This document shows, piece after piece, positions 19,580-63,435 of a stretch of 64,000 bases of DNA. Both the position numbers and the translations under genes were made by a program. Position 1 is the stretch's first letter. Every line of letters begins with the position of its first letter. This DNA comes from Candidatus Auribacterota bacterium (lineage in GTDB: Bacteria; Auribacterota; JAFGBW01): positions 2,615 through 66,614 of the forward strand of contig JAFGBW010000103.1 of NCBI GenBank assembly GCA_016932965.1, written 5' to 3'. The notes under the pieces are model-generated. The model was not told the DNA's origin. It did not search any database and worked only from the letters and a program-made list of their open reading frames with translations.

Positions 19580-20908
19580 ATGTTCGGATGTCATCTGGGA
19601 AGAGTATTTCAATTAACGGTTGGCGGCGGATCTTATCAGGAGGGATTGACATCGGTGGTCATGGGATGCCCTCCCGGCATCATCTTGACAGAACAGGAAA
19701 TCTATGGAGACTTGTTATTGAGGAAACCGGGTGCGGATGAGCTGTCTTCTCCAAGAAAAGAGCCGGATTTACCCGTGATTTATACAGGTTTGAATGCTGC
19801 TGACACCATCGAACATGCTGGAAATAAGCACCATACCAACGGAACGCCTGTTACCATTCTGATCCCGAATCTGGACCGTCATTTTATTCACATCAAACAA
19901 TATCAGGACACCAATCGGACACCTAGGCCTGGACATGCCTCTTATGCTTCTTTTATGAAGTACGGGCCAGATGATGACGCGGTGGGTGCCGGTATTTTCA
20001 GCGGGCGATACACCTCCACGATCGTTGCAGGGGGGTATGTGGCGAAAAAAATACTTGAGAAATGCGGCATCAGGGTTTTTGCCTATATAAAAGAAGCAGC
20101 CGGTGTCAAGGCAGATGATCTGGACATGGAAATGTCGTGGAAAAGGAACGCCGCGTATAAAGAGATGCGCCGTGATTTTGACCCGTTTTACCAGGAGATT
20201 TATGTTAAAACAAGGATCCATCCGGACATGCATTTCCTTGAGAAGATGAAGGTCTTTGCTGAAATAGAAAAGGAAATTGATGATATCCGGGCTAAAACAC
20301 CGCTGTTTGATCCTAAAAAAGTGGAAGAACAATATGGGATCAATCCGCTTCTGAACTGTCCTGATCTGGCTGCTGCAAAGGAAATGGTCAAAGCCATCAA
20401 TAAAATCACGCATACCGGGGATTCAAGCGGAGGGGTCGTGGAAGTCATTGCTTTGGGAGTGCCGCCGGGTCTTGGCGAACCTGTTTTTGATAAATTGGAT
20501 GCGGAATTAGGCAGGATGCTGGGTATTGGCGCTGTTAAAGCCGTAGAAGTGGGTGCCGGCCTTTCAGTCAAAGACTTGACCGGGATTCAAAGTAATGATC
20601 AGATGCGTTCTGAAAAGGGGAAAGTCCTGTTTGATTCGAATAATGCCGGCGGAATCACAGGCGGTCTTGCCACAGGACAACCGATTTTAGTGCGTTTGGC
20701 AGTCAAACCGACTCCGACCATTGCCAAAAAACAGCACACCATTGATAAATATACCCTGGAAAACGTCGAATTGGCCGCTATCACACGCCGGGACCCCACC
20801 ATTGTTGCCCGTATCTGGCCAGTGGCGGAAAATTATACGGCACTGGTGCTTTTAGATCATCTGATGCTTCATTTTGGTTTCCAGAAAATCAAAGAAATGA
20901 TCCGGTAG
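19580..20908 (+). CDS. aroC: chorismate synthase (atypical, with internal insertion)
   Basis: 442 aa; strong matches to AroC motifs: [65 protein letters not shown]. Good RBS (aaggagagagtATG). Confidence 0.8.
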
Positions 20909-22722: not shown

Positions 22723-23490
22723 ATGCTTGTCATAAATAATTTGAAAGTGAGTGTGAATGAAAAGCCGATTCTGGATTCCATCCGTCTTTCTGTCGGGAAA
22801 GGGGAGATTCACGCGATCATGGGCCCGAATGGTTCCGGCAAGAGCACACTGGCCAAGGTCATTGTGGGGCATCCGTTATGCAAGGTGACGGAAGGAAGCA
22901 TGGAATATAACATCAATGGGCAAAGGATCAATTTATTGCCCCTGTCTCCGGAGGAAAGGGCGAGAGAAGGTATATTTCTGGCATTTCAGTATCCAATGGA
23001 AATACCGGGTGTGAGCAATGCCGTTTTCTTAAGGGCGGCGTATAATGAGATTCTCAAAAAAACAGGCCGTGAGGAAATGGATCCCATGGATTTCAATATT
23101 TTCATAAAACAAAAAATGAAGGAATTGGATCTGGATGAATCTTTTATCAACCGTTTTGTGAATGTGGATTTTTCAGGGGGAGAAAAGAAGAGAAATGAGA
23201 TACTTCAGATGGCGGTTCTTTCCCCCAGGCTTGTTTTTCTGGATGAAGTCGATTCCGGATTGGATGTGGATTCACTCAGGACAGTGGCTGACCGGATCAA
23301 CCGTTTGAAAACCAAAGACAATGCATTAGTTCTGGTCACCCATTATCAACGGATACTCAATTACGTGGTTCCGGATTATGTTCATGTTCTCTCCAACGGC
23401 AGAATCATTAAAACGGGCGGAAAAGACCTGGCTTTATATATTGAGGAAAATGGATACGATACCATCAAAGAGGAGAAGAAAAGGGTATGA
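22723..23490 (+). CDS. sufC: Fe-S cluster assembly ATPase SufC
   Basis: 255 aa; Walker A GPNGSGKS, ABC signature FSGGEKKR, Walker B LVFLDEVDSGLD; SufC-typical length. Confidence 0.9.
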   Translation: MLVINNLKVSVNEKPILDSIRLSVGKGEIHAIMGPNGSGKSTLAKVIVGHPLCKVTEGSMEYNINGQRINLLPLSPEERAREGIFLAFQYPMEIPGVSNAVFLRAAYNEILKKTGREEMDPMDFNIFIKQKMKELDLDESFINRFVNVDFSGGEKKRNEILQMAVLSPRLVFLDEVDSGLDVDSLRTVADRINRLKTKDNALVLVTHYQRILNYVVPDYVHVLSNGRIIKTGGKDLALYIEENGYDTIKEEKKRV

Positions 23491-24002
23491 AAAAAACGGT
23501 ATTATTTATTTTAACTGTTTTGATTGGATCGGCTGTCTCCACTTTTTCTTATTCAGAGGAGACGGTCGCCCAGTTGAAAGAAAAAATCATTGATATCCAG
23601 AATGCGGGAGAACTGGGATTTCGCAATTTCACTCTCTGCACCAATATCATCGGATACGGCCAGTATGTGGCCGCTCCTGATAACAAGGTCAAAGCAGGAT
23701 CGGAGATTTATTTTTACTACGAGCCGGTGAATTTGTTTACCAACCGCCTGAATCAATCCTATCAGATTTGGTATACACAGGATATGATCATCCTTTCCCA
23801 GGACGGCAAGGAATTGTACCGGGCTTCCGATGCTTTGAATTTTAATTATCAGAGTCTGGCTCCTGTCATGGATATATATGCTTCGAATACATTGAATCTG
23901 AAGGAAGTGCCTCCTGGAATATATCAGTTCCAGGCAGTCATTCATGATAAATTGAAAAAAAGGGATGCCACGTATTCTTTTGTTTTTGAAGTGGTTCCAT
24001 GA
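23487..24002 (+). CDS. hypothetical secreted protein inserted between sufC and sufD
   Basis: 171 aa; N-terminal signal peptide (MKKTVLFILTVLIGSAVSTFS); start overlaps the sufC stop (ATGA) and its 3' end overlaps sufD; no recognisable domain. Confidence 0.45.
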   Translation: MKKTVLFILTVLIGSAVSTFSYSEETVAQLKEKIIDIQNAGELGFRNFTLCTNIIGYGQYVAAPDNKVKAGSEIYFYYEPVNLFTNRLNQSYQIWYTQDMIILSQDGKELYRASDALNFNYQSLAPVMDIYASNTLNLKEVPPGIYQFQAVIHDKLKKRDATYSFVFEVVP

Positions 24003-27173: not shown

Positions 27174-27833
27174 TTATATTTTTGCCAGCTCTTTTTGTTT
27201 TGCGTCGATGCTCTTACGGATTTCATCCCGGCTTTGTTTCAGGTCTGTCACTTTAGAGCTTGCTTTTTCCAGGTCGCCCTTTTTATTCTGGACCTTTTTT
27301 GTAAGGCTGGCATTCTTGGATTGAAGTGCATTTAAGCTTTTCTTATCCGCGTCTAATTCATTTTGGACTTTTTTCAATTCAGTGGTTTTTTCAGAAATCA
27401 ATTTTTCCAGGGAGGCTTTTTCCGCCATCTTGGCATTGATACTGTCACTCAAGGGCTTTTGGCCTTCACTCTCCTTGGCCAATTCTTTTTCAAGCTCATT
27501 GTACTCGTTTTCGTTTCCTTTTTCTACCTCTTCCGCATCCTTGATTTGCTTATTGAGACTTTCTTCCTGAATTTTCAGATCGTCAATTTGTTTCTGGAGT
27601 TCATTCTGTTTTTCAAGTCGTTCCTGAGCCTGTTTTTTCTTCTGTTGAGCCTGCATGAGCAGGGCCTGTAATTGGGCTTCTTCCTTTGCAGCCTGATCAA
27701 AGGTCGTCTGCGGGGTGACGCCTTGACCCGGTTTTGCACTTTTCTCTTTTTGAGGGGCAGTTTCTTCTGCAGCCATCACCTGCATACTTGTGCCCAGAAA
27801 TAGAACCAATAATAGAGTCATCATGTATCTCAT
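27174..27833 (-). CDS. secreted coiled-coil protein (Skp/OmpH-like or structural)
   Basis: 219 aa; signal peptide, then K/E/Q-rich heptad-like sequence throughout. Confidence 0.45.
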   Translation of the reverse strand: MRYMMTLLLVLFLGTSMQVMAAEETAPQKEKSAKPGQGVTPQTTFDQAAKEEAQLQALLMQAQQKKKQAQERLEKQNELQKQIDDLKIQEESLNKQIKDAEEVEKGNENEYNELEKELAKESEGQKPLSDSINAKMAEKASLEKLISEKTTELKKVQNELDADKKSLNALQSKNASLTKKVQNKKGDLEKASSKVTDLKQSRDEIRKSIDAKQKELAKI

Positions 27834-30015: not shown

Positions 30016-31260
30016 ATGAAAAACCTGTTTATTTATCTAAAGAATATTTTATTGATATCAGTGGTTTTATGTCTTTCCTTGTATGCGGAGGAGCCAGGAG
30101 ACGAAACCATGGGACCCGAACCTGTTCGGTATAAAAATTCATTTGAAATCAATCCCACCAGTGAGAGTTGTTATCTGGGATACGAAAGACTGATGACCCT
30201 GGGCGATCATGCCATATTGATTTTTGATATAAAAAACACATGCAAACAGGGGGATGATTTCGGTTTGTCAGGGTTCACCTGGCGTTTGAGTATGAATGAC
30301 AAGTCTCTTTTTTCAGCCAGAGTGCAGACATCCTGGATGGATGGGCTTCATAATATCGGTTTAAGACTGGGTTATGACAACCGATTTTTCGGCTGTGTTC
30401 TGACAGGAGTGAAAAGCTTGAGTGATCCTGAGACGATTCACGCAGAGGAATCCATTCTGGATGAGGCATCTACTTATGACGATACTTTTGTCGAAACACG
30501 GGGACAAAATGATGTGTATGACCGTGCGATAACCACGACCAGAGATGTTCTCATTTCCGAGACGCGTCTTGCCACTCCTGACGGTCTGTTACTGGACATG
30601 AATGTCAATTGTTTTAATCGGTTCAATTTTAATTTTGGCGGTTCTTACTGGGAGGCAGAAGACTGGGATGAAACCGGATTCCACGGCAGTTGTTCCTGGC
30701 AACTTACAGGCGCGGATGTGCTTGGCGGTCATTATGCAAAGGTGGGTGATAACGAGGAGGGCGGGATTTTTTATAAAAAGCGGTTTAATTCGCTCAAAGA
30801 TATCTTTAAAAAGGGTCCCAAATTCACTCCCGGAGAAGATATCCCTCTTTTGCACCGGTTTTCATCCATCCCCTTTTCTTTGCCGCCTATTAGGATTTTA
30901 GCTGCCCAGACTTACAGGAAAGAAATAAGAGAAACCCGGACCGAAGTCAATCATGAAGAAGTTTTGATCCGGAGAGAGGAGCCGACTAACAATCCTCCTG
31001 TGATCACGGCGTTCACCTGTGCCCCTGAAACAGCCGGGCAGTTTCGTGTCACTGCAGCCTCTGCCACAGATTCCGATGGGACCATTGTTTCGTGGATAAT
31101 AACCAGCGATATTGACGGAGACTTAGACGACGGGATTTGGCCCATCACCATTCCCTCTATCATCTCGACTCCTACCACTGATATTCATACGATCACCCTA
31201 ACTGTCACGGATGACAAGGGCGCCACCGCCACTGCATCAACGACAGTGAGCACCATGTAA
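30016..31260 (+). CDS. secreted hypothetical protein with C-terminal PKD/Ig-like domain
   Basis: 414 aa; signal peptide; C-terminal PPVITAFTCAPE...VTAASATDSDGTIVSW...TLTVTDDKGATATAS resembles a PKD repeat. Confidence 0.4.
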   Translation: MKNLFIYLKNILLISVVLCLSLYAEEPGDETMGPEPVRYKNSFEINPTSESCYLGYERLMTLGDHAILIFDIKNTCKQGDDFGLSGFTWRLSMNDKSLFSARVQTSWMDGLHNIGLRLGYDNRFFGCVLTGVKSLSDPETIHAEESILDEASTYDDTFVETRGQNDVYDRAITTTRDVLISETRLATPDGLLLDMNVNCFNRFNFNFGGSYWEAEDWDETGFHGSCSWQLTGADVLGGHYAKVGDNEEGGIFYKKRFNSLKDIFKKGPKFTPGEDIPLLHRFSSIPFSLPPIRILAAQTYRKEIRETRTEVNHEEVLIRREEPTNNPPVITAFTCAPETAGQFRVTAASATDSDGTIVSWIITSDIDGDLDDGIWPITIPSIISTPTTDIHTITLTVTDDKGATATASTTVSTM

Positions 31261-32834: not shown

Positions 32835-33575
32835 GTGACCAGGAAATTATTTATCCCGGGAGATAAGAATCCGGTGAAAAACAGTTTTTTTTGCCATTTG
32901 CTTCATGTTTTTTATGACTTAGTTGCATCAAGATTCAGAGATCCGGTTGTTTATTATTTTGGAATAGGCGGGGGAAAGGCTGTGTCTGCTGAAGGATATC
33001 AGCCTATTGATATTTTATCGCCGCTCATCGCCTCGGATTTCAGTTTGCTGATAGGCAGTGATATTTCCAAAGGGAATTTCCGGGCATTCGTATCCCTGGT
33101 TAAAAGAGAATTAGGACAGCTCCCTGGGATCGAGATGGGAGATGTCTCCTTCAGTGAGCTTACGAAGGATGCAGAGTTTCAAGTTGATTTCATGTTCATG
33201 GGAAAATCAAGAACCATCAGGATATATTATAACGTGGATTCGACAAAAGAGGGGCCTTCAGCTCTTAACAAATCATTGAGGAAGGGTTTTCAGGTATTAT
33301 TTTCAAGAGGGATTCCAGGCATCATTCCGGACATGGTCAGGGGAAAGACCATGGAGAAACTGCTGGGAAATCTTTCTGATGGTGGTTTGTTGTTTCTTGA
33401 GATGCCGGAAAATTTCACTCTGCCCGGCCCTGGTTTGAGACAAGAGGAACATACGGTTGTTTCTGATTTTTCTATATTCAAACGGATTCGTTTATATTCG
33501 CTGGAACAGCCATCCAGGATGTGGCCGTTGTTAATACTAGGAAAGATTTTTTCAACTTTTCGGAGAGCAGCTTAG
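32835..33575 (+). CDS. hypothetical protein
   Basis: 246 aa; no recognisable motifs; start uncertain. Confidence 0.3.
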   Translation: MTRKLFIPGDKNPVKNSFFCHLLHVFYDLVASRFRDPVVYYFGIGGGKAVSAEGYQPIDILSPLIASDFSLLIGSDISKGNFRAFVSLVKRELGQLPGIEMGDVSFSELTKDAEFQVDFMFMGKSRTIRIYYNVDSTKEGPSALNKSLRKGFQVLFSRGIPGIIPDMVRGKTMEKLLGNLSDGGLLFLEMPENFTLPGPGLRQEEHTVVSDFSIFKRIRLYSLEQPSRMWPLLILGKIFSTFRRAA

Positions 33576-33724
33576 TCTATCCGGAGTTGAGAATCTTATG
33601 GATACTTTTTAATCTCTTGATTTTCTTGAAACAGGAAAATCAAGGGATTACGTTGTTTTTTTGAAAGGAAGCGAAAAGTATTCCTCCGCATTTTCTCTTC
33701 TGTCCTTCGGACGGATGGTCTCCT

Positions 33725-36625
33725 TTATTTTTCACTGAAATTTTTTTCAATGAAATCATCCAGAAACACGAGCCGGTTGCGGATCCATTCCTTGGTTTGA
33801 CTCATGACTTCGTCGTGAAGAGGGCCTTCTTTGACCGGCCATGTTCTGAAATTGCGGATGCAGGCCTGTCTCATCTGTGCATCCAGATGGTCGATGTTTT
33901 TTAGAAGCGTTTCTTCGGACAACTGGTTTGATCTGAGTTCCTTCCATCTTGTTTTGAACAGGGAATTGTAACCCGGATAATCCGCGCTCATGCGCCGGAA
34001 CAGGTGGTTGTTCAGCCAGCCGGTGTGTTCCAGTCCCAGACTTTTATCATAATCCCAGGGGACAATGAAGAAGGGGGCATCCGGGTGTTTGTTTCTGGCC
34101 AGGAAGAGGTTATGGCGGTTTCCGTCCTTGTTGTAAGTGACATTAAGAAAAATTTCAAAATCAATGACATTGCCGATATCGATATTCATTGAAACATTCC
34201 TGATGAATTCCTCCCTGGGAGATGATCCCAGAAAACGGATGAGTGATTCATAGGGCTCCCAGTATTCAAGAACCTCAGGAGGAGGCTCTGTCTGCAGGTA
34301 AGCCCCGCGTGCGGATACCTGGAAATTAGCCTGGGTGTCTTCAGCCTTGTAAATCACGCTGTGGGCCGGATCTTTTTCCGAATAAGGGGCAAAACCCAGT
34401 GTGGCGGCGTTGATTTTTTCTGATAAGGAATAAACCCCCTGATATTCGTGGTTGAGAATCACTTCGACCAGACGGATTTTAGGGGTGATTCTCGGGGCTG
34501 CTTCCTTTGAAAAATTTCTGAACAGGTCATAGTTGATCACATTTTTCATGAGTGTCCGGTCAGGATAGTTCCCCATCAGGGCGAAACGGCTGTTGCAGTT
34601 GAAATCAAAAAAACTCCGGCTGTTTTTCAGACTCAGGGCATATGATTTTTTCGGATAGAGCAGGCAGGTATTGCCCCTGTATTTGATTTGGCCTTCCATC
34701 CAGCCGCTGTTTTTATCCGGCTCGTATAGTTTCACCAGGCAGGGGGTTTTATTTTCCTTTCGGACCGGGTTCGGAATTTGAAGCTGTAAAACACAAATGG
34801 GATTACAAAGGGGCATGACCGTAATCAAATATTTTCTTTCCACACTCCGGAAAGTGTCTGAAATGACCGCTGTCAGCGTCACGAATGCGGGCTCCTCTCC
34901 TTTTGGCCGTGTGATCTTACCGTCTTTTGTGAGGACTGTTTCATCCGAACTTTTCCATGAAAGGGAAGCTCCGGAGCATCCGGGCAGTTTTAAATCCCCC
35001 GTCACGCAATCCAGTGAAGGATTTTCATTCAGGATGAGTATATCACCGAGACATCTTCTTATTTTATTGAGCTTTTGAAGGCGGGGAGAGTCCCGCATTC
35101 TTTCCATTTCTTTTCTGAGCAATTCCTCCTCTTTTTTGAAGAAATATTTTATGGCCCGGACATTCAACTGCAGACTCCGGTCATTTTTAAACAGGGGGAT
35201 CCATTTTTTGACCAATTCCCGGTATTGTGACAGCACTTCCTCTTCTGAGAAAGGAAACCATTTCAATACATTTAAAATGGAACTGTGATCCGAATAACTG
35301 CGGTATCCGTTCAATTTGAATTCTTCAAAGTAATACAAGCCCTGGTTGATGCCATTGATCCTGACAAGGCAAATGCCGTTTGGAGTATAGGGCAGGTGAT
35401 GGCTCCGGCATAATTCTTTCAAAAGTAACGGACGGAGATAGCCTTTGATATGAAGCGGAAGCAGAACCATTTTTTTCATCCCCATGAAGGATTTGTTTTC
35501 TAGATCCAGATAATAGGCTTTCTTGGGCATGGGCCAATATTCGGAAGAAGGACCATACAGCCCCATTCTTACCTTGAAAAACCGGTTTGGGCCGGCAGTC
35601 ATGTCCACCCGTCTTTTTTTATAGGCCTTTTTCAAGGCACAGCCGTGTTGAAGACAGAGATTCTGGTTTTGGTTGAAAAAACGGAGATCTTTTTTAGACA
35701 GGGCGAAATCAAGTATGCAGATATCCTCCTGTTGATAGAGATGACTTTCATGATAAAACAGATTGAAATAATCCTCGAAGTCGAGAAGCGACCGGATCGT
35801 TTTGTTCAGGTTTTCCCAGAATTTGATTTTTAGATAAAATTTGGAAGAAACCTGGTAGGGCAGAGCGGTTTTCCCGCGGTATATTTCCCTCACTTCCCTT
35901 CTGGAGAGAGAACGGTTATAGAGGATCACTTCATCGAGAATGCCGTTTAATGGGTAGAGCACATGATATTCCCGGTATTTCCCGAATTCAATATTTGCAC
36001 ATATTGGGTGGACGGCGGATATCGGAACAGAACCTTTTAGTTCGCCGTTTTCATAAAGACTGGCCTTTTGACCGGCCAGATCCACTACGCCGGTGAGATT
36101 CACAAATTCGTCATACTTGTTAAAAATGTAACCTGCCTTCTGGATTTCCTTGTCGTTCGGAACGAAGAATTTCATTTCTCCGTTTTCTAAAACCAGTCCC
36201 GAATAGAGCCGGCCTGAATTTCTGGCCACAATCGTCTGGTTTTTTGAATGGCGGCTCAATTTAACCCGGCAGGAAATCGTGTATTGGAATCCCAGCTCGC
36301 TCCACGGGAGGCCCGTTTCAATATGATTGTTTTTCCTTCCGTTGAATAATCGGCCCTGCCCAAACCGGGCCTGGCTTAAAACCGTTTGATAATTCACGGT
36401 GTCCCATCTGTCGAAGTATTCTTTAGGGTCGATCTCATCCATGGACCAGTAAGCCAGAACCCCTTTTTTTGTCATGCGTCTTGCTAATTTTTTTTTTGCA
36501 GTACAAACAGCTCTGTCAGGCAGTTCAAAGACAATGTGATCAGAGAAATAGGACAGAAAAAAAAGGATTGCTATGAAGCTGAATAAAATCCGCTGTTTTC
36601 TTTTCATGAATCGGTCTGATTGCAC
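33725..36625 (-). CDS. secreted LamG (concanavalin-like) + CotH-like atypical-kinase domain protein
   Basis: 966 aa; signal peptide; LamG_3-type motif GILDEVILYNRSLSRREVREIY; C-terminal region with CotH-family signature (FFIVPWDYDKSLG). Confidence 0.45.
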   Translation of the reverse strand: MQSDRFMKRKQRILFSFIAILFFLSYFSDHIVFELPDRAVCTAKKKLARRMTKKGVLAYWSMDEIDPKEYFDRWDTVNYQTVLSQARFGQGRLFNGRKNNHIETGLPWSELGFQYTISCRVKLSRHSKNQTIVARNSGRLYSGLVLENGEMKFFVPNDKEIQKAGYIFNKYDEFVNLTGVVDLAGQKASLYENGELKGSVPISAVHPICANIEFGKYREYHVLYPLNGILDEVILYNRSLSRREVREIYRGKTALPYQVSSKFYLKIKFWENLNKTIRSLLDFEDYFNLFYHESHLYQQEDICILDFALSKKDLRFFNQNQNLCLQHGCALKKAYKKRRVDMTAGPNRFFKVRMGLYGPSSEYWPMPKKAYYLDLENKSFMGMKKMVLLPLHIKGYLRPLLLKELCRSHHLPYTPNGICLVRINGINQGLYYFEEFKLNGYRSYSDHSSILNVLKWFPFSEEEVLSQYRELVKKWIPLFKNDRSLQLNVRAIKYFFKKEEELLRKEMERMRDSPRLQKLNKIRRCLGDILILNENPSLDCVTGDLKLPGCSGASLSWKSSDETVLTKDGKITRPKGEEPAFVTLTAVISDTFRSVERKYLITVMPLCNPICVLQLQIPNPVRKENKTPCLVKLYEPDKNSGWMEGQIKYRGNTCLLYPKKSYALSLKNSRSFFDFNCNSRFALMGNYPDRTLMKNVINYDLFRNFSKEAAPRITPKIRLVEVILNHEYQGVYSLSEKINAATLGFAPYSEKDPAHSVIYKAEDTQANFQVSARGAYLQTEPPPEVLEYWEPYESLIRFLGSSPREEFIRNVSMNIDIGNVIDFEIFLNVTYNKDGNRHNLFLARNKHPDAPFFIVPWDYDKSLGLEHTGWLNNHLFRRMSADYPGYNSLFKTRWKELRSNQLSEETLLKNIDHLDAQMRQACIRNFRTWPVKEGPLHDEVMSQTKEWIRNRLVFLDDFIEKNFSEK

Positions 36626-36922
36626 TTTCTATCCGGATGATTCCTGGTTTGAGCATGATCCGACGCCGGGGCGGGATTGAATCCTACTATAATTGTAGCT
36701 GTGGAAGCGAAGGAAATATTTCTAAAAAAAATGGCCATCCAAGCTTGAAATACACGGAACGGCCTTCTCTTTCAGAAGACTTGTTTCTGGAAAACAAACA
36801 TTTTATAAAAAAAATGTAAAGTATTTTTCTTTTTCATTTTCCTGTTTATTTATGATAAGATGACATATAATTTCAATTCACCTGTTTACTATTAATCCAT
36901 TTTTATCGGGAACCGAAATCGA

Positions 36923-39511
36923 ATGAAACAAATGGTGTTATTCATTCTGCTTTTGTCTTTTCCTTGTTTAGCACAAGAAGAATTCAGGTTGAATCCCCAT
37001 TTGTCTGTTTATGAACTTAAAAACGGCCTGAAAGTCATCCTATCGCCGCGGAATCAGGGTGAATTGATTGCAGTAAGGCTTTTTGTCAAGGCAGGTTCCA
37101 TGACGGAGAATCCCTATTTAGGAAGCGGAATCTCGCATTTTGTGGAACACCTGTGTTTTAAAGGGAGCGAAAGGGGACGGACCACTTCGCTTACGCAGGA
37201 GGTCAGAAAAAAAGGCGGGACCGTCAATGCCCACACCTCTTTTTTGAATACGGTCTATGAAGTGACTTTTCCCTCAATTTATCTTGAAGACGCACTGAAG
37301 ATCGTTTCAGATCTCGTGCTCCACCTTCGTTTCAGCCAAGAGGACTTCGATAAGGAGAAATCGGTGATCGAAAGGGAGATGGACATGATCGAAGATGATC
37401 ATGACCGCTACTTGTCCGAAACATTCTGGCATCTGGCGTATTGCTATTCACCGGTCCGGTACCGGGTGATCGGTGAACGCTCCTTATTTAGAAAACTCAC
37501 TCCTGATCATGTCAGAGAATATTACGAAGCCCATTATGTGCCCGGTAATATGATTTTATCGGTTACTGGAAATTTTTTCCCAACTTCGGTGAAGCCTCTT
37601 ATCGAAAAATACTATCAATTCGAGTCCAGACAATTTTATCCCGCTGCAGGGGTCTGGAATGAGCCCCCTCCCTCTGCTGAAAAGTACCTGGAAGTCGAAC
37701 GCGAGCGTCTTCCTTTATACAAGGCCATCATTGGCTGGCAGACTACGGATATTCACAGCATTGACGTGGCAACATTGGATGTCCTTTCCATGATTCTGGG
37801 CGAAATGAAATCCTCGCTTCTTCCTTATTATCTGATTCCCACAGGAGAAATTTTAGGAATCTCCAGTTGGTCCTTTACGCCTGAATTTCCCGGTTTTCTA
37901 GGGATAGGTTTTTCCTGGCAGGACGGGTCTCCTGAGGATAAATCAGTCCTGGTTGAAAAAGTGATTGACAAGGTCAAAGCGGGAGATTTCAGCAATGCTT
38001 TGTTGAAAACCGCTCTCCAGCAGGTCCGGCTCGGCCTTTTTTTGAAAATGGAAAGCGTAGAGGGAGAGGCTGAAATATTAGGGAGTAATCTGCAGACCAC
38101 AGGCAATGTGCGTTACATTGAAACCTGGTTGAAAGATCTGGAACGTATCACGAAGGCCGATATTCAGGAAGCTGCGAAAAAATATCTTATTCCTGTCAGG
38201 AAAACCACCCTTGTTCTCACGCCGGCTTCCAAACGGCCTTCACCCCCTCCCAAGAAACTGGAAAAAATCATTCTTCGTCCGGTTTTATTGAAACTGCCTT
38301 CCGGTTTAAGAGTGATTTTATTGAATGACGACCGGCTTCCCTTGACTTACGTTCAATGGGTTGGTCTGGGCGGCACCATGGCGGAACCAGATCACAAAGA
38401 AGGAGTGGGAGCCTTGCTTGGTAATATACTCGGAACAGCCAGCCGTAAACTGGACCGCTTCAGCCTCGACAGGAAAATGGATTCTCTTGGCAGTGAAGTG
38501 AGAGGATTCTCAGGAAGAAACAGTTTTGGACTTTCCGGTACCGTTGTATCTGAAAACCTGCCTGCCATTCTGCCTGATTTTTTTAATCTTCTATTGACGC
38601 CGCGGTGGATAAAAAGTGACGTGGAAAGGGAAAAGAAGATTTTGAAAGTGGAAATGAATACCTCCATGGAGGACCCGTTTGACCGCGCCGCCATTGAAAT
38701 GCGCAAGGCGCTATACGGTAGTCACCCTTATGGGCGCATGATCAAGGGGACTGTAGAATCTATTTCACAAATGACGACGGAGGATATTGAATCTTTCTAC
38801 AGACAGATTTTTTGTCTTGAGAGAGGCGTGCTTTCTATCATGGGAAAATTCGATCTCCCCTGGGTCATGGACTGGCTCCATAAGATGGACAGAAAAAAAA
38901 CACCGCAAATACCCCCATGGAAAAGCACACTTTTGCCGGTTTTTCAGCCTTGTGAAAAACTGATCCCTCTTGAGAACGTGGAACAGACCATTCTCATGCT
39001 GGGTTATCCTACTGTTTCCATGCATCATGAGGACGCGCTGGCTCTGGATTTTCTTTCTGCGCATCTTTCGGAACAAAATTCTCCGCTTTTTAAAAGAATC
39101 AGGGAGGAAAAGGGGTGGGCTTATATTACCGGGGCTGAGAGTTCCTGTAACTTGGCAGGAGGCCATTTTATTGTTTATGCCGCCTTCAAGGAAGATGTGA
39201 TGGAAGAGATAGACGGGATCATCCAGGATATTTTTTTCAATCTGGCAAAAGAGGACATGCCCCTGGATATATTTGAAGAAACCAGATCATTTCTTCTTGG
39301 GCAGGATTTAAGAAGGATGGCTAATACCAGTGATCTTGGCCTGCGAAGCGCCCTTGAAGAGCTTTATGGCCTGGGTTATGATCATTATTCGAAAAGGGCG
39401 GAGAAGATTAAAACCTTGACTCCGATTCAGGTCCGTGAAACAGTCAAAAAATATTTCCATAACAAATCCCATGTCAAACTCGTTGTAGGAAAGCGCGCCG
39501 TGTGCAAATGA
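36923..39511 (+). CDS. secreted double-M16 zinc peptidase (pitrilysin/insulinase family)
   Basis: 862 aa; signal peptide; inverted zinc motif HFVEHLCF (HxxEH) in the first M16 half; second, degenerate M16 half in the C-terminal 430 aa. Confidence 0.75.
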   Translation: MKQMVLFILLLSFPCLAQEEFRLNPHLSVYELKNGLKVILSPRNQGELIAVRLFVKAGSMTENPYLGSGISHFVEHLCFKGSERGRTTSLTQEVRKKGGTVNAHTSFLNTVYEVTFPSIYLEDALKIVSDLVLHLRFSQEDFDKEKSVIEREMDMIEDDHDRYLSETFWHLAYCYSPVRYRVIGERSLFRKLTPDHVREYYEAHYVPGNMILSVTGNFFPTSVKPLIEKYYQFESRQFYPAAGVWNEPPPSAEKYLEVERERLPLYKAIIGWQTTDIHSIDVATLDVLSMILGEMKSSLLPYYLIPTGEILGISSWSFTPEFPGFLGIGFSWQDGSPEDKSVLVEKVIDKVKAGDFSNALLKTALQQVRLGLFLKMESVEGEAEILGSNLQTTGNVRYIETWLKDLERITKADIQEAAKKYLIPVRKTTLVLTPASKRPSPPPKKLEKIILRPVLLKLPSGLRVILLNDDRLPLTYVQWVGLGGTMAEPDHKEGVGALLGNILGTASRKLDRFSLDRKMDSLGSEVRGFSGRNSFGLSGTVVSENLPAILPDFFNLLLTPRWIKSDVEREKKILKVEMNTSMEDPFDRAAIEMRKALYGSHPYGRMIKGTVESISQMTTEDIESFYRQIFCLERGVLSIMGKFDLPWVMDWLHKMDRKKTPQIPPWKSTLLPVFQPCEKLIPLENVEQTILMLGYPTVSMHHEDALALDFLSAHLSEQNSPLFKRIREEKGWAYITGAESSCNLAGGHFIVYAAFKEDVMEEIDGIIQDIFFNLAKEDMPLDIFEETRSFLLGQDLRRMANTSDLGLRSALEELYGLGYDHYSKRAEKIKTLTPIQVRETVKKYFHNKSHVKLVVGKRAVCK

Positions 39512-41991
39512 ACATGAATGAAAACGATAGTGCTTTATCCATGGAAGACACGACCGTTCAGGAGGGAACAGAAGAAGTTTTTTTTTCAAAAAAGAATCAT
39601 CTCAGATTCAATGATTTGAAGCAGGATCTGGAAATGTATGATGTGCTTTCTGAAATCGGAGAGGGGGCCACGGGTATTGTATATGAAGCCGTTCATAAAA
39701 AATTAGGACGGCCCGTAGCCATCAAAATGCTGCGTCCCGAATACTTTAAAGATCATGATATCTTAAAAAATTTTCGCAGGGAGGCTCAAATCATCTCCCG
39801 CATCAAGCACGAGAATATCGCCTCTGTTTATGATTTCATCGAAGCCAATAAACACTATTACATCATCATGGAAAAAGTGTATGGAAAGAGCCTGTCTGAT
39901 ATCATCAAGACGAAACGGATGACGGAGGAGGAAATTCTCCATGTCATGCTGGGGCTTTTGGAAGGGGTGCGCTATTCCCATAATAAAAAGATCCTGCACC
40001 TGGATATCAAGCCATCCAATATCTTAATAAACGAGTATGGTGAACCTGTGATCGTTGACTTCGGAATTTCCCGGTTTCAATTCTCTAACACTGAAAAGAA
40101 CAGGATCGTGGGTACGCCGCACTACATGGCTCCTGAACAGTATTCCCGGTCCCAGTCCTGTCTGGATGTGCGTACTGACATTTATGCCCTCGGCATTTTA
40201 TTTTATCAGCTTGTAAGCGGTCAGCTGCCTTTTAACGGGAATTCTTTCTCCGAGATCAGGGAAAAAGTGATGAATCATGATCCCTTGAGGTTATCTTCCA
40301 TCTGCCCTGATATTTCCCCCGGCCTGGAAGCCATTATTTTAAAAATGATCCGTCAGTCTCCTTCTGAGAGATATCCCGATGCCCAATTGGTCATTGATGA
40401 CATCAAAAGATATTTGAATAATGAACCGGTCAAGGCTTATCAATATAAGCGGCTTTCTCTTGTGTGGAATTGGATGATCAGAAATATGGCTGTGACCGTA
40501 TTATCTCTTTTGACTCTGGCCGTGACGTTTGCCTTTATCGTATATTTTCACAATAAGGTCATCGAACAAACCCCCCAATGGAAACAGGCCTTTTCCGAAG
40601 ATTTTAACCAGGATTTTTTGGGTAAGTGGGAAGGGTATTCCGGATTCGTCAACGGGTGTCTTACTCCTGTCAAAGCTGAAGATTTTATGAAGATTTTCAG
40701 CCGGAAAATCAAGGTATGCGGTTTTAAAAAAGAATACGATTCTTTACTGCTTTCTAACCAGTCGTTTAATGAAAACGTTAAATTGCTTTTTGAATGCACG
40801 GTCAATCCCAATCCTTTGAAAGGTTCGCATTTCGGTTTTTTTGTCAATGGATCTCCTTCAGAGAATGAGTGGGGATATTTGATTGATTGCCAGGATAGTA
40901 AAATGTCCCTCATCCGGGACAATATTAACAGCACTCCGTTATGGACCGGTGACTATGTGTTTAAATCGGATCAGATTTATCAGATTGCTCTTGAAGTCAT
41001 CAATGGACATATTCATCTCTTCATCAATAACAAACTCATTTTTGATTTTCAGGATATCGTGACCTGGTTTTCGAAAAACGATAACCGGATTGGTTTTTAC
41101 GCAACCAATGTGGATATGGAGGTGGATAATGTGGTTCTTTTCCAGCAGAATACAGCCCTCCTGATCACTCCTTTGGATATCGGACACCGTTTTTTCCAGT
41201 TGGGACGATTCGACGAAGCCATTCATGAATACGCGAGTGTCATTGAAAAATATCCCGCACATAAAATGACTTTAGATGCTTATTATTTCAAGGGTCTGGC
41301 TCTCATTAAAAACAATCATCCTGTGAAAGCACTGCGTGATTTCGATCGGCTCATTTCGCTCACCAAGGAAGACAGCGTCAAAGGGAAATGTTACTATCAA
41401 AAGGGAGTTTGTCTTTTAGAATTGAACGAATTGCCTAATGCCTGCAAGTCCTTTGACTATGCTCTCAGCGTTTATGATATTGCCTCCCTGCGGTCCAATG
41501 TAATCAATGTTGTTGTTGATACGGCCTTGAAAAAAGTAGCTGAAGCGACGATGGGGAGTGTTTCTGACGCTGAATATCTGTTTCAATATCTGATTAAGCT
41601 GAATTCCCCCTGGAAACTGTCTTATGTGGAGGTCCCTAAAAAGATCATCTTATATTATTTTGACCGCGGATATTATGAGAAATGCCTGCAAAGCCTGGAT
41701 CTCCTCATAAGGCATTATACTCCCAAAAAAGATTTACTGGCTTTTGCCACGTGGAAAAAAGCAAGGGCCTATTCAGAGATGGCCAGACTGCAGAAAGAGG
41801 AAGCGGCTACTCGTTCTTATAATGAAAAGGCGATTGATTGCTATAATACTATTTTGACTCGATATCCTGAAATTGAGATATATTGTTCTTTTGCGCATGA
41901 AGAACTCGCTAAGATTTACCGTTCCATGGGAGAGTTTGTTTTGGCCAATACCCATGAGAAGCAGGTGAAAAGAGAATGGATGGAGAATTAA
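39502..41991 (+). CDS. Hanks-type Ser/Thr protein kinase with TM segment, LamG-like domain and TPR repeats
   Basis: 829 aa; kinase motifs AIKML, HLDIKPSNILI, DFGIS, GTPHYMAPE; one TM (MAVTVLSLLTLAVTFAFIVYF); LamG-like YQIALEVINGHIHLFINNKLIFDF; C-terminal TPR-like repeats. Confidence 0.8.
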   Translation: MQMNMNENDSALSMEDTTVQEGTEEVFFSKKNHLRFNDLKQDLEMYDVLSEIGEGATGIVYEAVHKKLGRPVAIKMLRPEYFKDHDILKNFRREAQIISRIKHENIASVYDFIEANKHYYIIMEKVYGKSLSDIIKTKRMTEEEILHVMLGLLEGVRYSHNKKILHLDIKPSNILINEYGEPVIVDFGISRFQFSNTEKNRIVGTPHYMAPEQYSRSQSCLDVRTDIYALGILFYQLVSGQLPFNGNSFSEIREKVMNHDPLRLSSICPDISPGLEAIILKMIRQSPSERYPDAQLVIDDIKRYLNNEPVKAYQYKRLSLVWNWMIRNMAVTVLSLLTLAVTFAFIVYFHNKVIEQTPQWKQAFSEDFNQDFLGKWEGYSGFVNGCLTPVKAEDFMKIFSRKIKVCGFKKEYDSLLLSNQSFNENVKLLFECTVNPNPLKGSHFGFFVNGSPSENEWGYLIDCQDSKMSLIRDNINSTPLWTGDYVFKSDQIYQIALEVINGHIHLFINNKLIFDFQDIVTWFSKNDNRIGFYATNVDMEVDNVVLFQQNTALLITPLDIGHRFFQLGRFDEAIHEYASVIEKYPAHKMTLDAYYFKGLALIKNNHPVKALRDFDRLISLTKEDSVKGKCYYQKGVCLLELNELPNACKSFDYALSVYDIASLRSNVINVVVDTALKKVAEATMGSVSDAEYLFQYLIKLNSPWKLSYVEVPKKIILYYFDRGYYEKCLQSLDLLIRHYTPKKDLLAFATWKKARAYSEMARLQKEEAATRSYNEKAIDCYNTILTRYPEIEIYCSFAHEELAKIYRSMGEFVLANTHEKQVKREWMEN

Positions 41992-58233: not shown

Positions 58234-59685
58234 TTATCGGCATGCTTCCGGCTTTTTAATATACAGGTCATAAAGATTTTTCAGTATCAGAAGAAAACCA
58301 TTCCAGTATTCCCTTGGACGAATATTTCTGATTGTAAAAAGATGCCGATAAATCATGATGGGTCTGAAATAAAATTGTAAAAAAGCTTTTTTTTGGGAAC
58401 GGATGAGTTTCTGCGGAGTCATTCCATCCGGAGTGAAGACCACTTTCTCCGCTGAAGGAGGATAGGATGAAAAACAGATCCAGGGTAGTCCATTTGTTTT
58501 TTTTCTGATTTTTTGATCTTCATACGCTGCCGTTCCAGGAAAGGGAACAAACAAATTGAATTTGGCATAATCCAATCCCATTTTTTTTGACGCCTCTATC
58601 GTTGCCATGATTTCTTCTTCTGTTTCTGTCGGGTTTCCGATGATAAAAAGACCATATAAAAAGATTCCGCATTTTTTTACCATGTCCGCGGCCTTGATTG
58701 AATCCTGAACGGTAAATCGTTTGTTTAAAATTTTTAATATCCTGTCTGAACCGGACTCAAAACCGATCTGGATTTTGGTGCATCCAGCTTTTTTCATGAG
58801 TTCAAGAAGCTCTTCATCCAAGAGATCAGGTCTGGTTTCTGTTGTCCAGACGATTTTAGACGGAACATCTAAGCGGATGAGTTCGTTACAGAATTCAATG
58901 GCCTGGTCCCTGTATACGGGGAAATTAGCATCTGAGAAGACAAAACCATCCACTCCGAACCGGTCGTGACACCATAACATTTCAGAAATAACGTTTTCAA
59001 CAGAACGTCTTCTCACCTGATTGCCCAATTCCTGATTGCAGAAAATACAATGGAAAGGGCAGCCCCGGTTGAACAAAAGAGGAAGATTCAGCCGGCCTCC
59101 TGGGGTCACTTCAGGCCGGGGTTTGTATTTTTCCAGGGGCAGAATATCCCATGCGGGAAAAGGAATGGAATCCAGATCCTGAATCAGGGGCCTTTCCGGA
59201 TTTCGAATGGGGTTGCCTTTATCCTGATAAGTAATCCCTTTCACATCATCAAGGCTTTGTTTGTTTTCAAAATGGCATACCAGATCCAGCAGGGTTTTCT
59301 CCCCTTCCCCGTGTACAATCACATCCGCAATGCCCTTAGAAATAAAATCCTTTGCAAAATAATCCGCGTGTCTATGCCCCAGGACGATTTTTATTTCAGG
59401 AAAATGTTTCCGGATTTCTTTTGTTAGAAAAACAGTCTGATCCGCCAAAGGTGTCAGACACGATATTCCGATCATTTCCGGAGAATAACTGCGGATGTTT
59501 TCCATGATTCCCTTTAAGCCGAGTTTTTCGACGTAATCATCAATGATTTTGACTTCATGTCCGTATTTTTTCAGGTAGGAAGCAAGATAAGCAAGGCCGA
59601 TGACAGGAACCGGGGCAAAAAATTTTTCATAATAGGTAAATTCGGATATGGAATAGTAAAAATGATTGATGAGGAGTATTTTCAT
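58234..59685 (-). CDS. class B radical SAM enzyme (N-terminal cobalamin-binding domain + rSAM core)
   Basis: 483 aa; B12-binding-like Rossmann (VIGLAYLASYLKKYGHEVKIID); CX3CX2C in NRGCPFHCIFCNQ. Confidence 0.75.
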   Translation of the reverse strand: MKILLINHFYYSISEFTYYEKFFAPVPVIGLAYLASYLKKYGHEVKIIDDYVEKLGLKGIMENIRSYSPEMIGISCLTPLADQTVFLTKEIRKHFPEIKIVLGHRHADYFAKDFISKGIADVIVHGEGEKTLLDLVCHFENKQSLDDVKGITYQDKGNPIRNPERPLIQDLDSIPFPAWDILPLEKYKPRPEVTPGGRLNLPLLFNRGCPFHCIFCNQELGNQVRRRSVENVISEMLWCHDRFGVDGFVFSDANFPVYRDQAIEFCNELIRLDVPSKIVWTTETRPDLLDEELLELMKKAGCTKIQIGFESGSDRILKILNKRFTVQDSIKAADMVKKCGIFLYGLFIIGNPTETEEEIMATIEASKKMGLDYAKFNLFVPFPGTAAYEDQKIRKKTNGLPWICFSSYPPSAEKVVFTPDGMTPQKLIRSQKKAFLQFYFRPIMIYRHLFTIRNIRPREYWNGFLLILKNLYDLYIKKPEACR

Positions 59686-59780
59686 GGTCTCAATATCATT
59701 GTTTTGATTTCATTTTTTTCTATTAAAGGATAAAATTACATCATGTTAATTCAATTTCAGGTTATTTTCAACAGCCAACC

Positions 59781-62506: not shown

Positions 62507-62657
62507 TAAGTTATCTTTTCAGCATGAATAAATGGATGGGAGCTTAAAATGAGAGCCGTTTGTCGGAAATAAGTTTTATGCATCTGTTATATTCAATTCA
62601 AGTTGTATGACATGATTATTTGACGGAATCGAAATCATCAATTTCAGGCAGGGTTAA

Positions 62658-63398
62658 ATGAGTAAGCCAGAATATAATTTTTTTTGTTATGTCTTCAATC
62701 TGTTTCCATTACCCCTGATTGTAATTAATGTCATCATGGCTGCGTGGCTGGTTTTTAATTTCTATATTCTTTTCCGGTGGTCCCGATATCTTATCATGGA
62801 AAGAACCAGTCGAAAAACCGGAATGCATTTGCTGGGTTACGCCTGTCTTTTTGGAATTCTTTCAAAAGTATTTTCATGCCGCTATGGTATGCTGGGTTTT
62901 CATTTATATGAACTGATTTTTTATTACTTATCGCTTGGATTCCATGTGGCAGCTTTTTATTTCCTGATTAAGAGTTCATGGCATTCCTTAAAACCGTGGC
63001 TTTTAACATTAGGGAATTATTTTTTCGTATATCATTTCTTATTTTTTCCTATTGTGTTCTGGATGATGTTTACATGGATCATTCCTTCAGTTGATTTTCA
63101 CCGGTTAAACGACGGGGTCTATCGTGGTAAAAGCAACAGCATTGCAAATCATACTATTTCTGAAGTGACGGTCAAGGAAGGCACTCTTGTTTCGATAAGA
63201 TGGATACAAAAAGGTTGTTCTGAGTATGGCATGGAAGCCTATGAGCAATTGCCCGGGCGTATTCTCAGACTTCAGTCATTGGATGTTGATGGAATCAGCG
63301 GGGCTACGCGTACATCTAACCTGATAAAAAGTTCCGTTGGAGATGCCTTGCAGAATAGCACTCATCATCTCGATCAAAGTGAAAATAGAAAAGACTAG
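62658..63398 (+). CDS. membrane protein with C-terminal FMN-binding (FMN_bind) domain
   Basis: 246 aa; 4-5 TM; C-terminal DVDGISGATRTSNLIKSSVGDAL matches the FMN_bind S/T-G-A-T motif (flavin attachment Thr). Confidence 0.5.
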   Translation: MSKPEYNFFCYVFNLFPLPLIVINVIMAAWLVFNFYILFRWSRYLIMERTSRKTGMHLLGYACLFGILSKVFSCRYGMLGFHLYELIFYYLSLGFHVAAFYFLIKSSWHSLKPWLLTLGNYFFVYHFLFFPIVFWMMFTWIIPSVDFHRLNDGVYRGKSNSIANHTISEVTVKEGTLVSIRWIQKGCSEYGMEAYEQLPGRILRLQSLDVDGISGATRTSNLIKSSVGDALQNSTHHLDQSENRKD

Positions 63399-63435
63399 CG
63401 GAAGAATATTGGGAAGGTCAGGAAGAAGACTATAG

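Follow-up and report, generated by a model that had tools for sequence, protein, structure and literature searches.

The stretch of DNA analyzed here (the window) comprises 64 kb and holds three adjacent genes, encoding a protein with laminin-G (LamG) and CotH kinase domains, a double M16 metallopeptidase, and a receptor Hanks Ser/Thr kinase (STK). All three open reading frames (ORFs) were present and carried the domains first seen in them. The CotH gene is divergent from the M16 and STK genes (Table 1). No promoter-like matches were found within the spacer between the CotH and M16 genes, and over the 10-kb region scanned the frequency of such matches was no higher than chance. A scan for terminators was also at chance level except for one long hairpin, located between a convergent 246-aa ORF (ending at 33575) and the CotH stop codon; judged by its pattern, this hairpin is likely a terminator. 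Since the CotH and M16 genes diverge from a common 297-bp spacer, they may be co-regulated in this one genome.

Table 1. Features of the locus, in positions of the window
Feature	Position	Strand	Basis
Hairpin, 19-bp stem	33610..33650	.	Terminator-like scan, pattern match only
LamG-CotH gene, 966 aa	33725..36625	-	ORF; Pfam; co-linear family alignment; GenBank
CotH atypical kinase domain, aa 647-955	33761..34687	-	Pfam; 5JD9 by sequence and fold
Catalytic core, D834-x4-N839 ... P856-W-D858-Y-D860	34046..34126	-	5JD9 alignment; family conservation
aBig_2 Ig-like domain, aa 534-604	34814..35026	-	Pfam E 1.6e-12; 27/33 family members
CotH N-lobe-like subdomain, aa ~338-435	35321..35614	-	hhalign; model
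Laminin-G/ConA-like β-sandwich, aa ~56-245	35891..36460	-	Pfam; family; Foldseek
Probable N-terminal membrane anchor, aa 13-35	36521..36589	-	Hydropathy; family alignment; model
Divergent spacer CotH/M16, 297 bp, AT-rich	36626..36922	.	Sequence
Double M16 metallopeptidase gene, 862 aa, secreted, PqqL-like architecture	36923..39511	+	Pfam; motif; N terminus
Receptor Hanks Ser/Thr kinase gene, 829 aa from GTG	39502..41991	+	Pfam; NCBIfam; alignment
Single TM helix, aa 325-354	40474..40563	+	Hydropathy 2.45; model helix aa 329-356
Predicted periplasmic β-sandwich, aa 360-549	40579..41148	+	Model (13 strands); sub-threshold Pfam
Predicted periplasmic all-helical TPR-like domain, aa 557-828	41170..41985	+	Pfam TPR_2 and related families; model

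The preliminary description had assigned the first of these products to the CotH-like kinases, and this assignment was borne out. The Pfam match to CotH (PF08757) covered profile positions 1 to 322 of 322 with an E value of 4.9e-48 and 164.7 bits against a cutoff of 23.8, and the PWDYD motif was located at residues 856 to 860. GenBank holds the protein as MBN2143946.1, "CotH kinase family protein," with a start at M7 and a length of 960 aa. The ORF is intact, and the same protein occurs in an independent assembly. By sequence, the protein matched Bacillus cereus CotH in the PDB (5JD9; E 2e-9). An AlphaFold model of the protein (pLDDT 89.1; pTM 0.80) had 5JDA/5JD9 as its best PDB match in Foldseek (E 5.7e-18; target-normalized TM score 0.80; rmsd 3.4 Å), and the kinase domain, which was modeled with high confidence, superposed on AMP-bound CotH. 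Structural examination of the catalytic residues likewise favored the assignment, in that the similarity to B. cereus CotH was accompanied by the presence of the catalytic Asp and Asn motifs.

In the alignment with 5JD9, D834 was paired with B. cereus D224 and D858 with D247. With the numbering mapped by an identical 23-residue spacing, D834 and D858 would be the equivalents of B. subtilis D228 and D251; B. subtilis CotH mutants at D228 and D251 are reported to be inactive (PMC7821199). Conservation of the catalytic core was high among 33 aligned family members, with D858 present in all 33, D860 in 31, N839 in 29, and D or E at position 834 in 30; across the family, position 834 is D, E, or N. 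The protein encoded in the window keeps D834, N839, D858, D860, and K660, all of which are conserved in the family.

The kinase domain is preceded by several additional modules. Laminin_G_3 was matched by Pfam at residues 114 to 245 (E 2.1e-10), and the LamG region was matched by Foldseek to clostridial neurotoxin Hc fragments (E ~4e-10). Comparison of family region 255-520 with region 610-966 gave an hhalign probability of 91% (E 9.5e-7), and in the model residues ~338 to 435 follow the same β-β-β-β-α-β-β order as residues 627 to 736. This N-lobe-like subdomain is a partial internal duplication of CotH that is degenerate and lacks a WDYD-type catalytic motif.

The CotH protein had been described as fully extracytoplasmic. 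This view was upheld for the bulk of the protein, which is predicted to lie outside, and requires amendment for residues 13 to 35, a probable membrane anchor. MKRKQR precedes this segment and an acidic "SD..F..P" motif follows it, giving a basic-then-hydrophobic arrangement, and the model contains helices over residues 2 to 53. All 33 aligned family members combined CotH and Laminin_G_3 with a conserved N-terminal anchor segment. By the positive-inside rule, the protein is most likely membrane anchored, with its N terminus inside and its bulk and C terminus outside. M51, the start given by the Logan gene call (916 aa), was rejected as the true start: the anchor is conserved in the family, and the GenBank start is M7. 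As a separate observation, there is no obvious ATP supply for a periplasmic kinase.

The second gene was found to encode a secreted double M16 peptidase, as had been described. Peptidase_M16 and Peptidase_M16_C each matched two stretches of the protein above threshold (119.5 and 153.2 bits), and residues 1 to 17 form a signal-like sequence, MKQMVLFILLLSFPCLA/QEE. The sole HxxEH motif is HFVEH at residues 72 to 76 (nt 37136-37150), with acidic residues ~77 residues downstream; the second half of the protein contains no HxxEH. None of the NCBIfam equivalog thresholds was reached by the M16 protein, with YfmH, YfmF, PqqF, and pitrilysin far below their cutoffs, and an exact look-up of the protein found no record.

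The third gene encodes a canonical Hanks kinase, in agreement with the preliminary description. The Pkinase domain was matched at residues 46 to 292 (E 9e-58; 196.1 bits against a cutoff of 31.7), and the catalytic motifs G53xG55xxG58, K75, E94, H166xD168xxxxN173, D186FG, and P211E212 were invariant in 13 STK orthologues. The best NCBIfam match was PknB_PASTA_kin, which covered the kinase domain only and scored 268 bits against an equivalog cutoff of 450. In GenBank, the protein is named "protein kinase" and starts at the ATG at 39514 (825 aa); a 100% match to the STK (P0004), labeled as originating in a Ca. Aureabacteria MAG, was also found. The description of a single transmembrane (TM) helix with TPR modules outside was sustained by one hydrophobic span, by Pfam matches to TPR from about residue 558, and by the model.

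Both kinase proteins had been said to contain LamG modules. This was correct for the CotH protein; in the STK, no Pfam threshold was reached by the β-sandwich, and Laminin_G_3 gave no match. The best Pfam match of the STK sandwich was 3keto-disac_hyd/DUF1080, for which the whole profile was spanned at E 0.0016 to 0.038 with 19 bits, below the cutoff of 26.8. Other sub-threshold matches were to DUF6250, Gal-bind_lectin, and Polysacc_lyase, all of them β-sandwich families. These three families and 3keto-disac_hyd belong to the ConA-like clan, and on the model the STK sandwich is probably ConA-like/DUF1080-like. Searching the PDB with a profile of the aligned STK ectodomains found nothing even at E ≤ 10, and only kinases came back when the complete STK model was compared by fold with a viral library, so that this comparison gave no class for the ectodomain. 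When the STK ectodomain was compared with the LamG of the CotH family, hhalign gave a probability of 6.4%. At this level of profile similarity, the idea of a LamG module shared by the two kinase proteins is unsupported.

An exhaustive HMMER search with the CotH protein gave 5952 matches at E ≤ 1e-3; among the best 150 of these, ~100 were co-linear over the full length. Word-indexed homologue searches with the single sequence and with a 33-sequence profile recovered, besides the identical protein, only one relative at 27% and matches confined to LamG, and a metagenome scan added loci but no nearer neighbors, with no relative closer than 33%. The resulting family of ~950-aa LamG-CotH proteins has its center in the PVC group: most members come from Verrucomicrobiota and Kiritimatiellia, and others from Lentisphaerota, Auribacterota, and a small number of further phyla. 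Of 20 informative GTDB species genomes, 18 have the CotH-family gene next to a gene for a VTC polyphosphate-polymerase-like product and one for a membrane protein of the DUF4956 type, and DUF4956 adjoins it in all 10 full-length metagenome loci. The same context was found at locus L002 and in an Auribacterota genome (L011), and the closest relative of the window protein (P0124; 41% identical) has DUF4956 directly upstream. These triad operons often lie among envelope-glycan genes, with PMT_2, GT2, LPG_synthase_TM, DUF2079, epimerase, and GT4-like genes flanking the triad, the last being GT4-like by sequence only. Searches of the 64-kb window by tblastn with both partners, VTC (PF09359) and DUF4956 (PF16316), gave nothing better than E ~1. 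The window copy of the CotH gene is separated from its usual VTC and DUF4956 partners.

The STK gene starts at 39502, in tight coupling with the M16 stop codon at 39511, and the two genes overlap or abut. Full-length STK orthologues were found in eight lineages, including that of the window, and an M16 gene lies upstream of the STK in three of these. In L006/L007 and in L170, the upstream M16 gene overlaps the STK gene by 11 nt. Over its full length, the window M16 protein shares 39.6% identity with the M16 protein upstream of the L170 STK orthologue; its identity to that of L006 is 26.6%. The remaining five lineages have no adjacent M16, and the upstream neighbor there is PP2C or Lactamase_B; a PP2C phosphatase is the divergent neighbor in five orthologous STK loci. 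Thus, because M16 is missing in five of eight lineages, the M16-STK pairing is not obligatory. None of the other STK neighbors of the relatives (PP2C, HATPase_c, Amidase_3, AccB, AccC, and ThrRS) was found in the 64-kb window, and the M16-STK pair was relocated to its present site as a unit. Of the three genes, M16 and STK alone stand next to each other repeatedly and in tight coupling, in three of the eight lineages.

Collectively, the domain content, catalytic motifs, folds, and synteny statistics suggest, with a probability that we place at about 70%, that two independent units stand back to back in the Candidatus Auribacterota (Aureabacteria) chromosome: a CotH protein without its usual partners and an M16-STK operon. 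The first unit, on the minus strand, would be an inner-membrane-anchored, outward-facing protein composed of a TM segment, LamG, the degenerate N-lobe-like repeat, aBig_2, and the CotH kinase. It would act as a catalytically competent extracytoplasmic phosphotransferase, which its LamG and Ig modules may position on an envelope glycan or glycoprotein substrate. The second unit, on the plus strand, would be a two-gene operon. Its products would be a Sec-exported peptidase of the double M16 type and a Hanks kinase receptor, the latter with its kinase domain in the cytoplasm, a single TM helix, and a sensor in the periplasm made of the β-sandwich and the TPR domain. This kinase may sense an envelope or periplasmic cue, possibly a peptide that the M16 peptidase produces or clears, by which the two proteins may be in cross-talk.

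The preliminary description had treated the CotH kinase, the M16 peptidase, and the Hanks kinase as one secreted signaling/processing module whose two kinases bind the same carbohydrate or protein ligand by means of LamG domains present in both. The three genes are indeed physically adjacent, with CotH and M16 divergent from a common intergenic region, and their products all have extracytoplasmic parts, with β-sandwich modules in both kinase proteins. However, CotH adjoins the STK only in the window (it is near the STK in none of the seven other lineages), and among the 33 full-length CotH-family loci M16 is present in none and an STK in one, 5 kb away and on the opposite strand. The CotH gene is divergent, its family keeps the different, conserved VTC/DUF4956 context, and no second locus combining CotH, M16, and STK was found. 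The sandwiches, moreover, have a profile similarity probability of 6%, and that of the STK fails the Laminin_G_3 model. The single-block reading fails because the synteny is not conserved, which had been set beforehand as the finding that counts against it, and we regard it as highly improbable. A less sweeping view is that M16 and the Hanks kinase are mere neighbors, as are all three genes, and that their adjacency is gene order inherited within a narrow clade. The five lineages with PP2C or Lactamase_B in place of M16 fit this view, as does the origin of all STK orthologues in a narrow set of uncultured lineages. It is countered by a start/stop overlap that is kept where the STKs are only 39 to 50% identical, and by a pair that stayed together in the window while every other neighbor changed; on balance, it is possible but unlikely.

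A further alternative concerns the CotH protein itself, which might be nonenzymatic in this genome and serve as a surface lectin, adhesin, or structural envelope protein, the loss of VTC and DUF4956 marking the loss of a phosphotransfer role. CotH-family proteins of Mucorales are host-binding invasins. A separate paper deals with the part that Mucorales CotH proteins play in virulence (PMC9973265). Such a function would suit the LamG and Ig-like binding modules, the catalytically dead CotH-like repeat, the absence of VTC and DUF4956 from the 64-kb window, and the variation at position 834 (D, E, or N) across the family. Against this, the window protein retains D834, N839, D858, D860, and K660, its high-confidence kinase-domain model superposes on AMP-bound CotH, and its ORF is intact, with an identical copy in an independent assembly. 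We consider a nonenzymatic CotH protein quite improbable. An extension of the phosphotransferase reading, which we rate as improbable, is that LamG-CotH, the VTC-type polyphosphate polymerase, and DUF4956 constitute a three-part system that phosphorylates envelope glycans or proteins outside the cytoplasm. The yeast VTC complex makes polyphosphate and passes it across a membrane. In the proposed system, which would be widespread in the PVC group and also attached to Gram-positive pel loci, VTC and DUF4956 would likewise produce polyphosphate and export it through the membrane, and the outward-facing CotH kinase, located in a compartment devoid of ATP, would use polyphosphate or an equivalent exported donor; the window copy would then have its partners elsewhere or a changed donor.

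As first framed, the locus is of little importance: its products fall within annotated families as ordinary members, and the adjacency of the three genes is lineage specific. The VTC-DUF4956-CotH triad is a more interesting lead than the three-gene adjacency. Reports of this triad had been confined to the vicinity of Gram-positive pel operons, and according to one paper it does not occur elsewhere; here, VTC and DUF4956 are the nearly invariant partners of a large family of LamG-CotH proteins predicted to face outward. The association with VTC and DUF4956 opens to testing the question of how a kinase might operate outside the cytoplasm of bacteria. Recurrent translational coupling of M16 to a non-PASTA receptor STK in Auribacterota, to our knowledge a phylum without cultured members, suggests a protease-linked envelope-sensing pathway.

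Like Bacillus CotH (PF08757; 5JD9/5JDA), the window protein has the atypical kinase fold, a full Pfam profile, equivalents of the catalytic Asp residues, and the PWDYD metal-binding motif. However, the two are 19% identical, and the window protein exceeds Bacillus CotH in length by ~600 residues and carries a probable anchor, LamG, an Ig domain, and a CotH-like repeat that is dead. Bacillus CotH acts in the mother-cell cytoplasm, whereas the window protein is predicted to face outward, and we know of no spore formation in the Auribacterota host. In Gram-positive pel loci (such as Streptococcus intermedius SIR_1592-1594), a secreted CotH, a VTC domain, and DUF4956 are adjacent, as in most relatives of the window protein. 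The cotH, VTC, and DUF4956 genes of these loci have polysaccharide genes nearby (PMC7112168, PMC12345266), and glycan or polysaccharide genes thus lie near both the pel loci and the relatives of the window protein. In contrast, streptococcal CotH carries FN3 and no LamG, and it is attached to the pel operon. The layout of LamG, N-lobe repeat, aBig_2, and CotH is that of PVC-type proteins, from which the window differs in having neither partner gene.

The STK has the overall plan of PASTA-type PknB/Stk1: a cytoplasmic Hanks kinase at the N terminus, followed by one TM helix and an extracytoplasmic sensor. Unlike these kinases, it has no PASTA repeats, and its sensor is a β-sandwich with a ~270-aa TPR-like solenoid. 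For E. coli PqqL, a fused double M16 peptidase, we know of no coupling to a Hanks kinase gene. In the window M16 protein, as in PqqL and pitrilysin-family M16 peptidases, M16 and M16_C occur twice per chain, a single HxxEH lies in the first half, and a signal peptide is present.

Three adjoining genes of the window encode the domains noted in a preliminary description: CotH with a laminin-G (LamG) module, a doubled M16 peptidase, and a Hanks kinase (STK) with one transmembrane helix and a TPR ectodomain. The CotH gene is divergent from the other two, with an AT-rich spacer of 297 bp between them. The M16 and kinase genes overlap by 10 nt if the kinase starts at GTG, or are 2 nt apart with the ATG start given in GenBank. 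The window derives from a metagenome-assembled genome of Candidatus Aureabacteria (Auribacterota), and a deposited protein of that organism is 100% identical to the kinase. Each of the three is a new member of a family that is already known and annotated, and the CotH protein is deposited as MBN2143946.1, a 'CotH kinase family protein' of 960 aa. The preliminary description had joined these genes in one secreted signalling and processing block. Comparison with their relatives suggests, with a probability of about 0.7, two units in this region that are unrelated to each other. The observation is confirmed, but the single-block interpretation is only partly supported and fails the synteny check set for it.

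Features of the window and their coordinates
Feature	Position	Strand	Product	Basis
CotH gene	33725-36625	-	966 aa	long ORF
M16 gene	36923-39511	+	862 aa	long ORF
Hanks kinase gene	39502-41991	+	829 aa	long ORF
Degenerate CotH N-lobe copy	35321-35614	-	aa ~338-435 of CotH protein	profile and model
Unmatched ORF	23487-24002	+		
Unmatched ORF	27174-27833	-		
Unmatched ORF	30016-31260	+	414 aa	
Unmatched ORF	32835-33575	+	246 aa	
Hairpin, probable terminator	33610-33650			19-bp stem, T-run
Spermine/spermidine-synthase-like gene	13204-15573	-	~790 aa	
Chorismate synthase ORF	19580-20908	+	442 aa	Pfam
B12-binding radical SAM genes, then ORF	58234-61217		483, 478 and 433 aa	
Low-GC window end	62001-64000			GC 0.356

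The CotH protein matched Laminin_G_3 at aa 114-245, aBig_2 at aa 534-604, and a complete CotH domain at aa 647-955 (Pfam, E 4.9e-48). A PDB sequence search matched B. cereus CotH (5JD9) and aligned D834 (NKDG) and D858 (PWDYD) with D224 and D247 of that protein. Substitution of either D228 or D251 inactivates B. subtilis CotH (PMC7821199); these residues share an identical 23-residue spacing with D224 and D247, and we infer that they are the counterparts of D834 and D858. In an alignment of 33 full-length family members, G651, D689, G730, D858, R893 and D956 were invariant, K660, N839 and D860 were near-invariant, and position 834 was D or E in 30. CotH and Laminin_G_3 were present in all 33 members and aBig_2 in 27. 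An AlphaFold model built from this alignment was confident (pLDDT 89.1, pTM 0.80), and its best PDB matches were the CotH structures 5JDA and 5JD9 (E 5.7e-18, target TM 0.80), followed by clostridial neurotoxin Hc fragments, which matched the LamG sandwich. The C-terminal CotH assignment was confirmed by both profile and fold.

The N-terminus of the family (n=33) contains a conserved basic segment, a hydrophobic stretch and an acidic 'SD..F..P' motif; by the positive-inside rule, the CotH protein would be membrane-anchored with its N-terminus inside and the remainder outside. Profile-profile comparison (hhalign) of the unannotated middle of the protein (aa ~348-435) with aa ~641-736 gave a probability of 91% (E 9.5e-7), and in the model the middle region and the CotH N-lobe have their strands and helices in the same order. 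This middle region, which is conserved across the family, is a degenerate copy of the N-lobe without catalytic motifs.

Relatives of the CotH protein were nearly absent from a word-indexed search; an exhaustive HMMER search returned 5952 hits; of the 150 best, about 100 were co-linear proteins of 920-1050 aa. The family alignment was scanned against GTDB genomes, one for each species, and a collection of metagenomes, and all flanks were compared with the window M16, STK and other neighbours, and with the VTC (PF09359) and DUF4956 (PF16316) proteins first met beside P0002, a 27% relative of the CotH protein. VTC and DUF4956 directly adjoined the LamG-CotH gene in 18 of the 23 species genomes with a full-length member; almost without exception, the three genes shared a strand and ran VTC-DUF4956-CotH. 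Of the other five, three were contigs without upstream DNA, leaving L020 and L084 as true exceptions. Among full-length metagenome loci, DUF4956 was present in 10/10. It also lies immediately upstream of the closest relative, P0124 (41% identity), where the contig ends, and the Auribacterota genome L011 has the order VTC-CotH-DUF4956. Across Verrucomicrobiota, Kiritimatiellia, Victivallales, Auribacterota and Rokubacteria (L010-L031, L090-L099, L002, L172), the triad forms an almost invariant operon of three genes, and genes for envelope glycans often lie around it (PMT_2, GT2, LPG_synthase_TM, DUF2079, a fused oxidoreductase-epimerase, and a GT4-like gene assigned by sequence only). Neither VTC nor DUF4956 occurred in 120 loci of short, kinase-domain-only CotH relatives; thus, only the LamG-CotH architecture goes with the triad. 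No homologue of either was found in the 64-kb window, which makes the window CotH gene an orphan member of its family. In both exceptional Verrucomicrobiota loci (L020 1216-4832, L084 10001-13533), the next gene is a convergent DUF4230 gene, and this may be a second type of neighbourhood in which orphan copies occur.

The proposed conservation of CotH, M16 and STK as a block was not borne out. None of the full-length CotH-family loci contained M16, and one contained a Hanks kinase, 5 kb away on the opposite strand. Full-length orthologues of the window kinase were found in seven other lineages (39-52% identity), and CotH lay beside none of them; its slot is occupied in these relatives by PP2C or amidase genes. 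AccB-AccC lay downstream of the kinase in 7/7, a divergent PP2C phosphatase and a HATPase_c protein of ~350 aa accompanied it in five (L003/L004, L005, L008, L170, L171), and a Lactamase_B gene was upstream in L009. M16 was immediately upstream of the kinase, with an 11-nt overlap, in L006/L007 and L170, and the L170 peptidase was 39.6% identical to that of the window over its full length. PP2C, HATPase_c, Amidase_3, AccB, AccC and ThrRS, all neighbours in relatives, were absent from the window. Since these other neighbours are gone, M16 and STK were moved as a pair, which argues for a real unit.

The M16 protein contains M16 and M16_C twice each (Pfam), a single HFVEH motif (aa 72) and a signal-like N-terminus; no NCBIfam equivalog threshold was reached. 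The Hanks motifs of the kinase are complete and invariant over 13 orthologues. Beyond its membrane helix (aa 325-354), the ectodomain was modelled as a 13-strand beta-sandwich (aa 360-549) followed by a TPR-like solenoid of ~270 residues (pLDDT 82.7). This sandwich had been described as a LamG module shared with the CotH protein, suggesting a common carbohydrate or protein ligand. Comparison with the CotH-family LamG profile gave a probability of 6% (hhalign), and the PDB profile search gave no match. The ectodomain spanned the whole 3keto-disac_hyd/DUF1080 profile below threshold (E 0.0016, 19 bits, cut-off 26.8), with further sub-threshold matches to DUF6250, Gal-bind_lectin and Polysacc_lyase, all of which we take to be ConA-like clan beta-sandwich families. 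The two sandwiches have at most a very common superfold in common, and these comparisons provide no support for a common ligand.

The genes around these three are housekeeping and envelope genes, including GT4, an M50 peptidase, TPR proteins, UppP, FPP synthase, DUF2752, a lipoate-ligase-like gene and a SUF cluster. Four ORFs of 171-414 aa had no match in Pfam, nor, for the 414-aa and 246-aa ORFs, in NCBIfam; these two directly adjoin the CotH gene and have no counterparts in any of the relatives' loci that were compared. Between the CotH stop codon and the convergent 246-aa ORF lies a perfect-looking hairpin, probably a bidirectional terminator. The ~790-aa protein whose C-terminal domain resembles spermine/spermidine synthases lies within ~25 kb of the kinase and recurs ~6 kb from it in L009 (16790-19189), there adjoining a PMT_2 glycosyltransferase. 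The 327-position chorismate synthase profile is stretched across aa 10-429, indicating an insertion of ~100 residues. The two radical SAM genes are divergent and adjoining, and GC outside the window end is 0.40-0.47.

We are less sure of the function of either unit than of the two-unit reading. The intact catalytic core, extracytoplasmic domain types and glycan-gene context of relatives suggest that the CotH protein would most likely act as an outward-facing phosphotransferase, with LamG and Ig modules targeting an envelope glycan or glycoprotein. The phosphate donor is an obvious problem for such an enzyme. Exported polyphosphate is suggested by the almost constant presence of VTC and DUF4956 beside relatives, and by the analogous yeast VTC complex; this is a speculation that we consider unlikely to be correct. 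The kinase would most likely serve as a receptor whose sandwich and TPR domains sense a signal from the periplasm or envelope, and the co-translated M16 might produce, trim or remove a peptide ligand. Amidase_3, PP2C and AccBC in relatives, and UppP and FPP synthase in the window, point to envelope biogenesis as a candidate role for this pair.

The three-gene neighbourhood is in itself of modest interest, and the conserved VTC-DUF4956-LamG/CotH triad is more worth following up. In the reachable literature, the cotH, polyphosphate-polymerase and DUF4956 set appears solely as an accessory of Gram-positive pel operons (PMC7112168, PMC12345266), and a 2025 S. intermedius paper states that the arrangement was not found outside pel loci (PMC12345266). 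S. intermedius showed less Pel-dependent aggregation when either the DUF4956 gene or the CotH gene was deleted (PMC7112168, PMC12345266).
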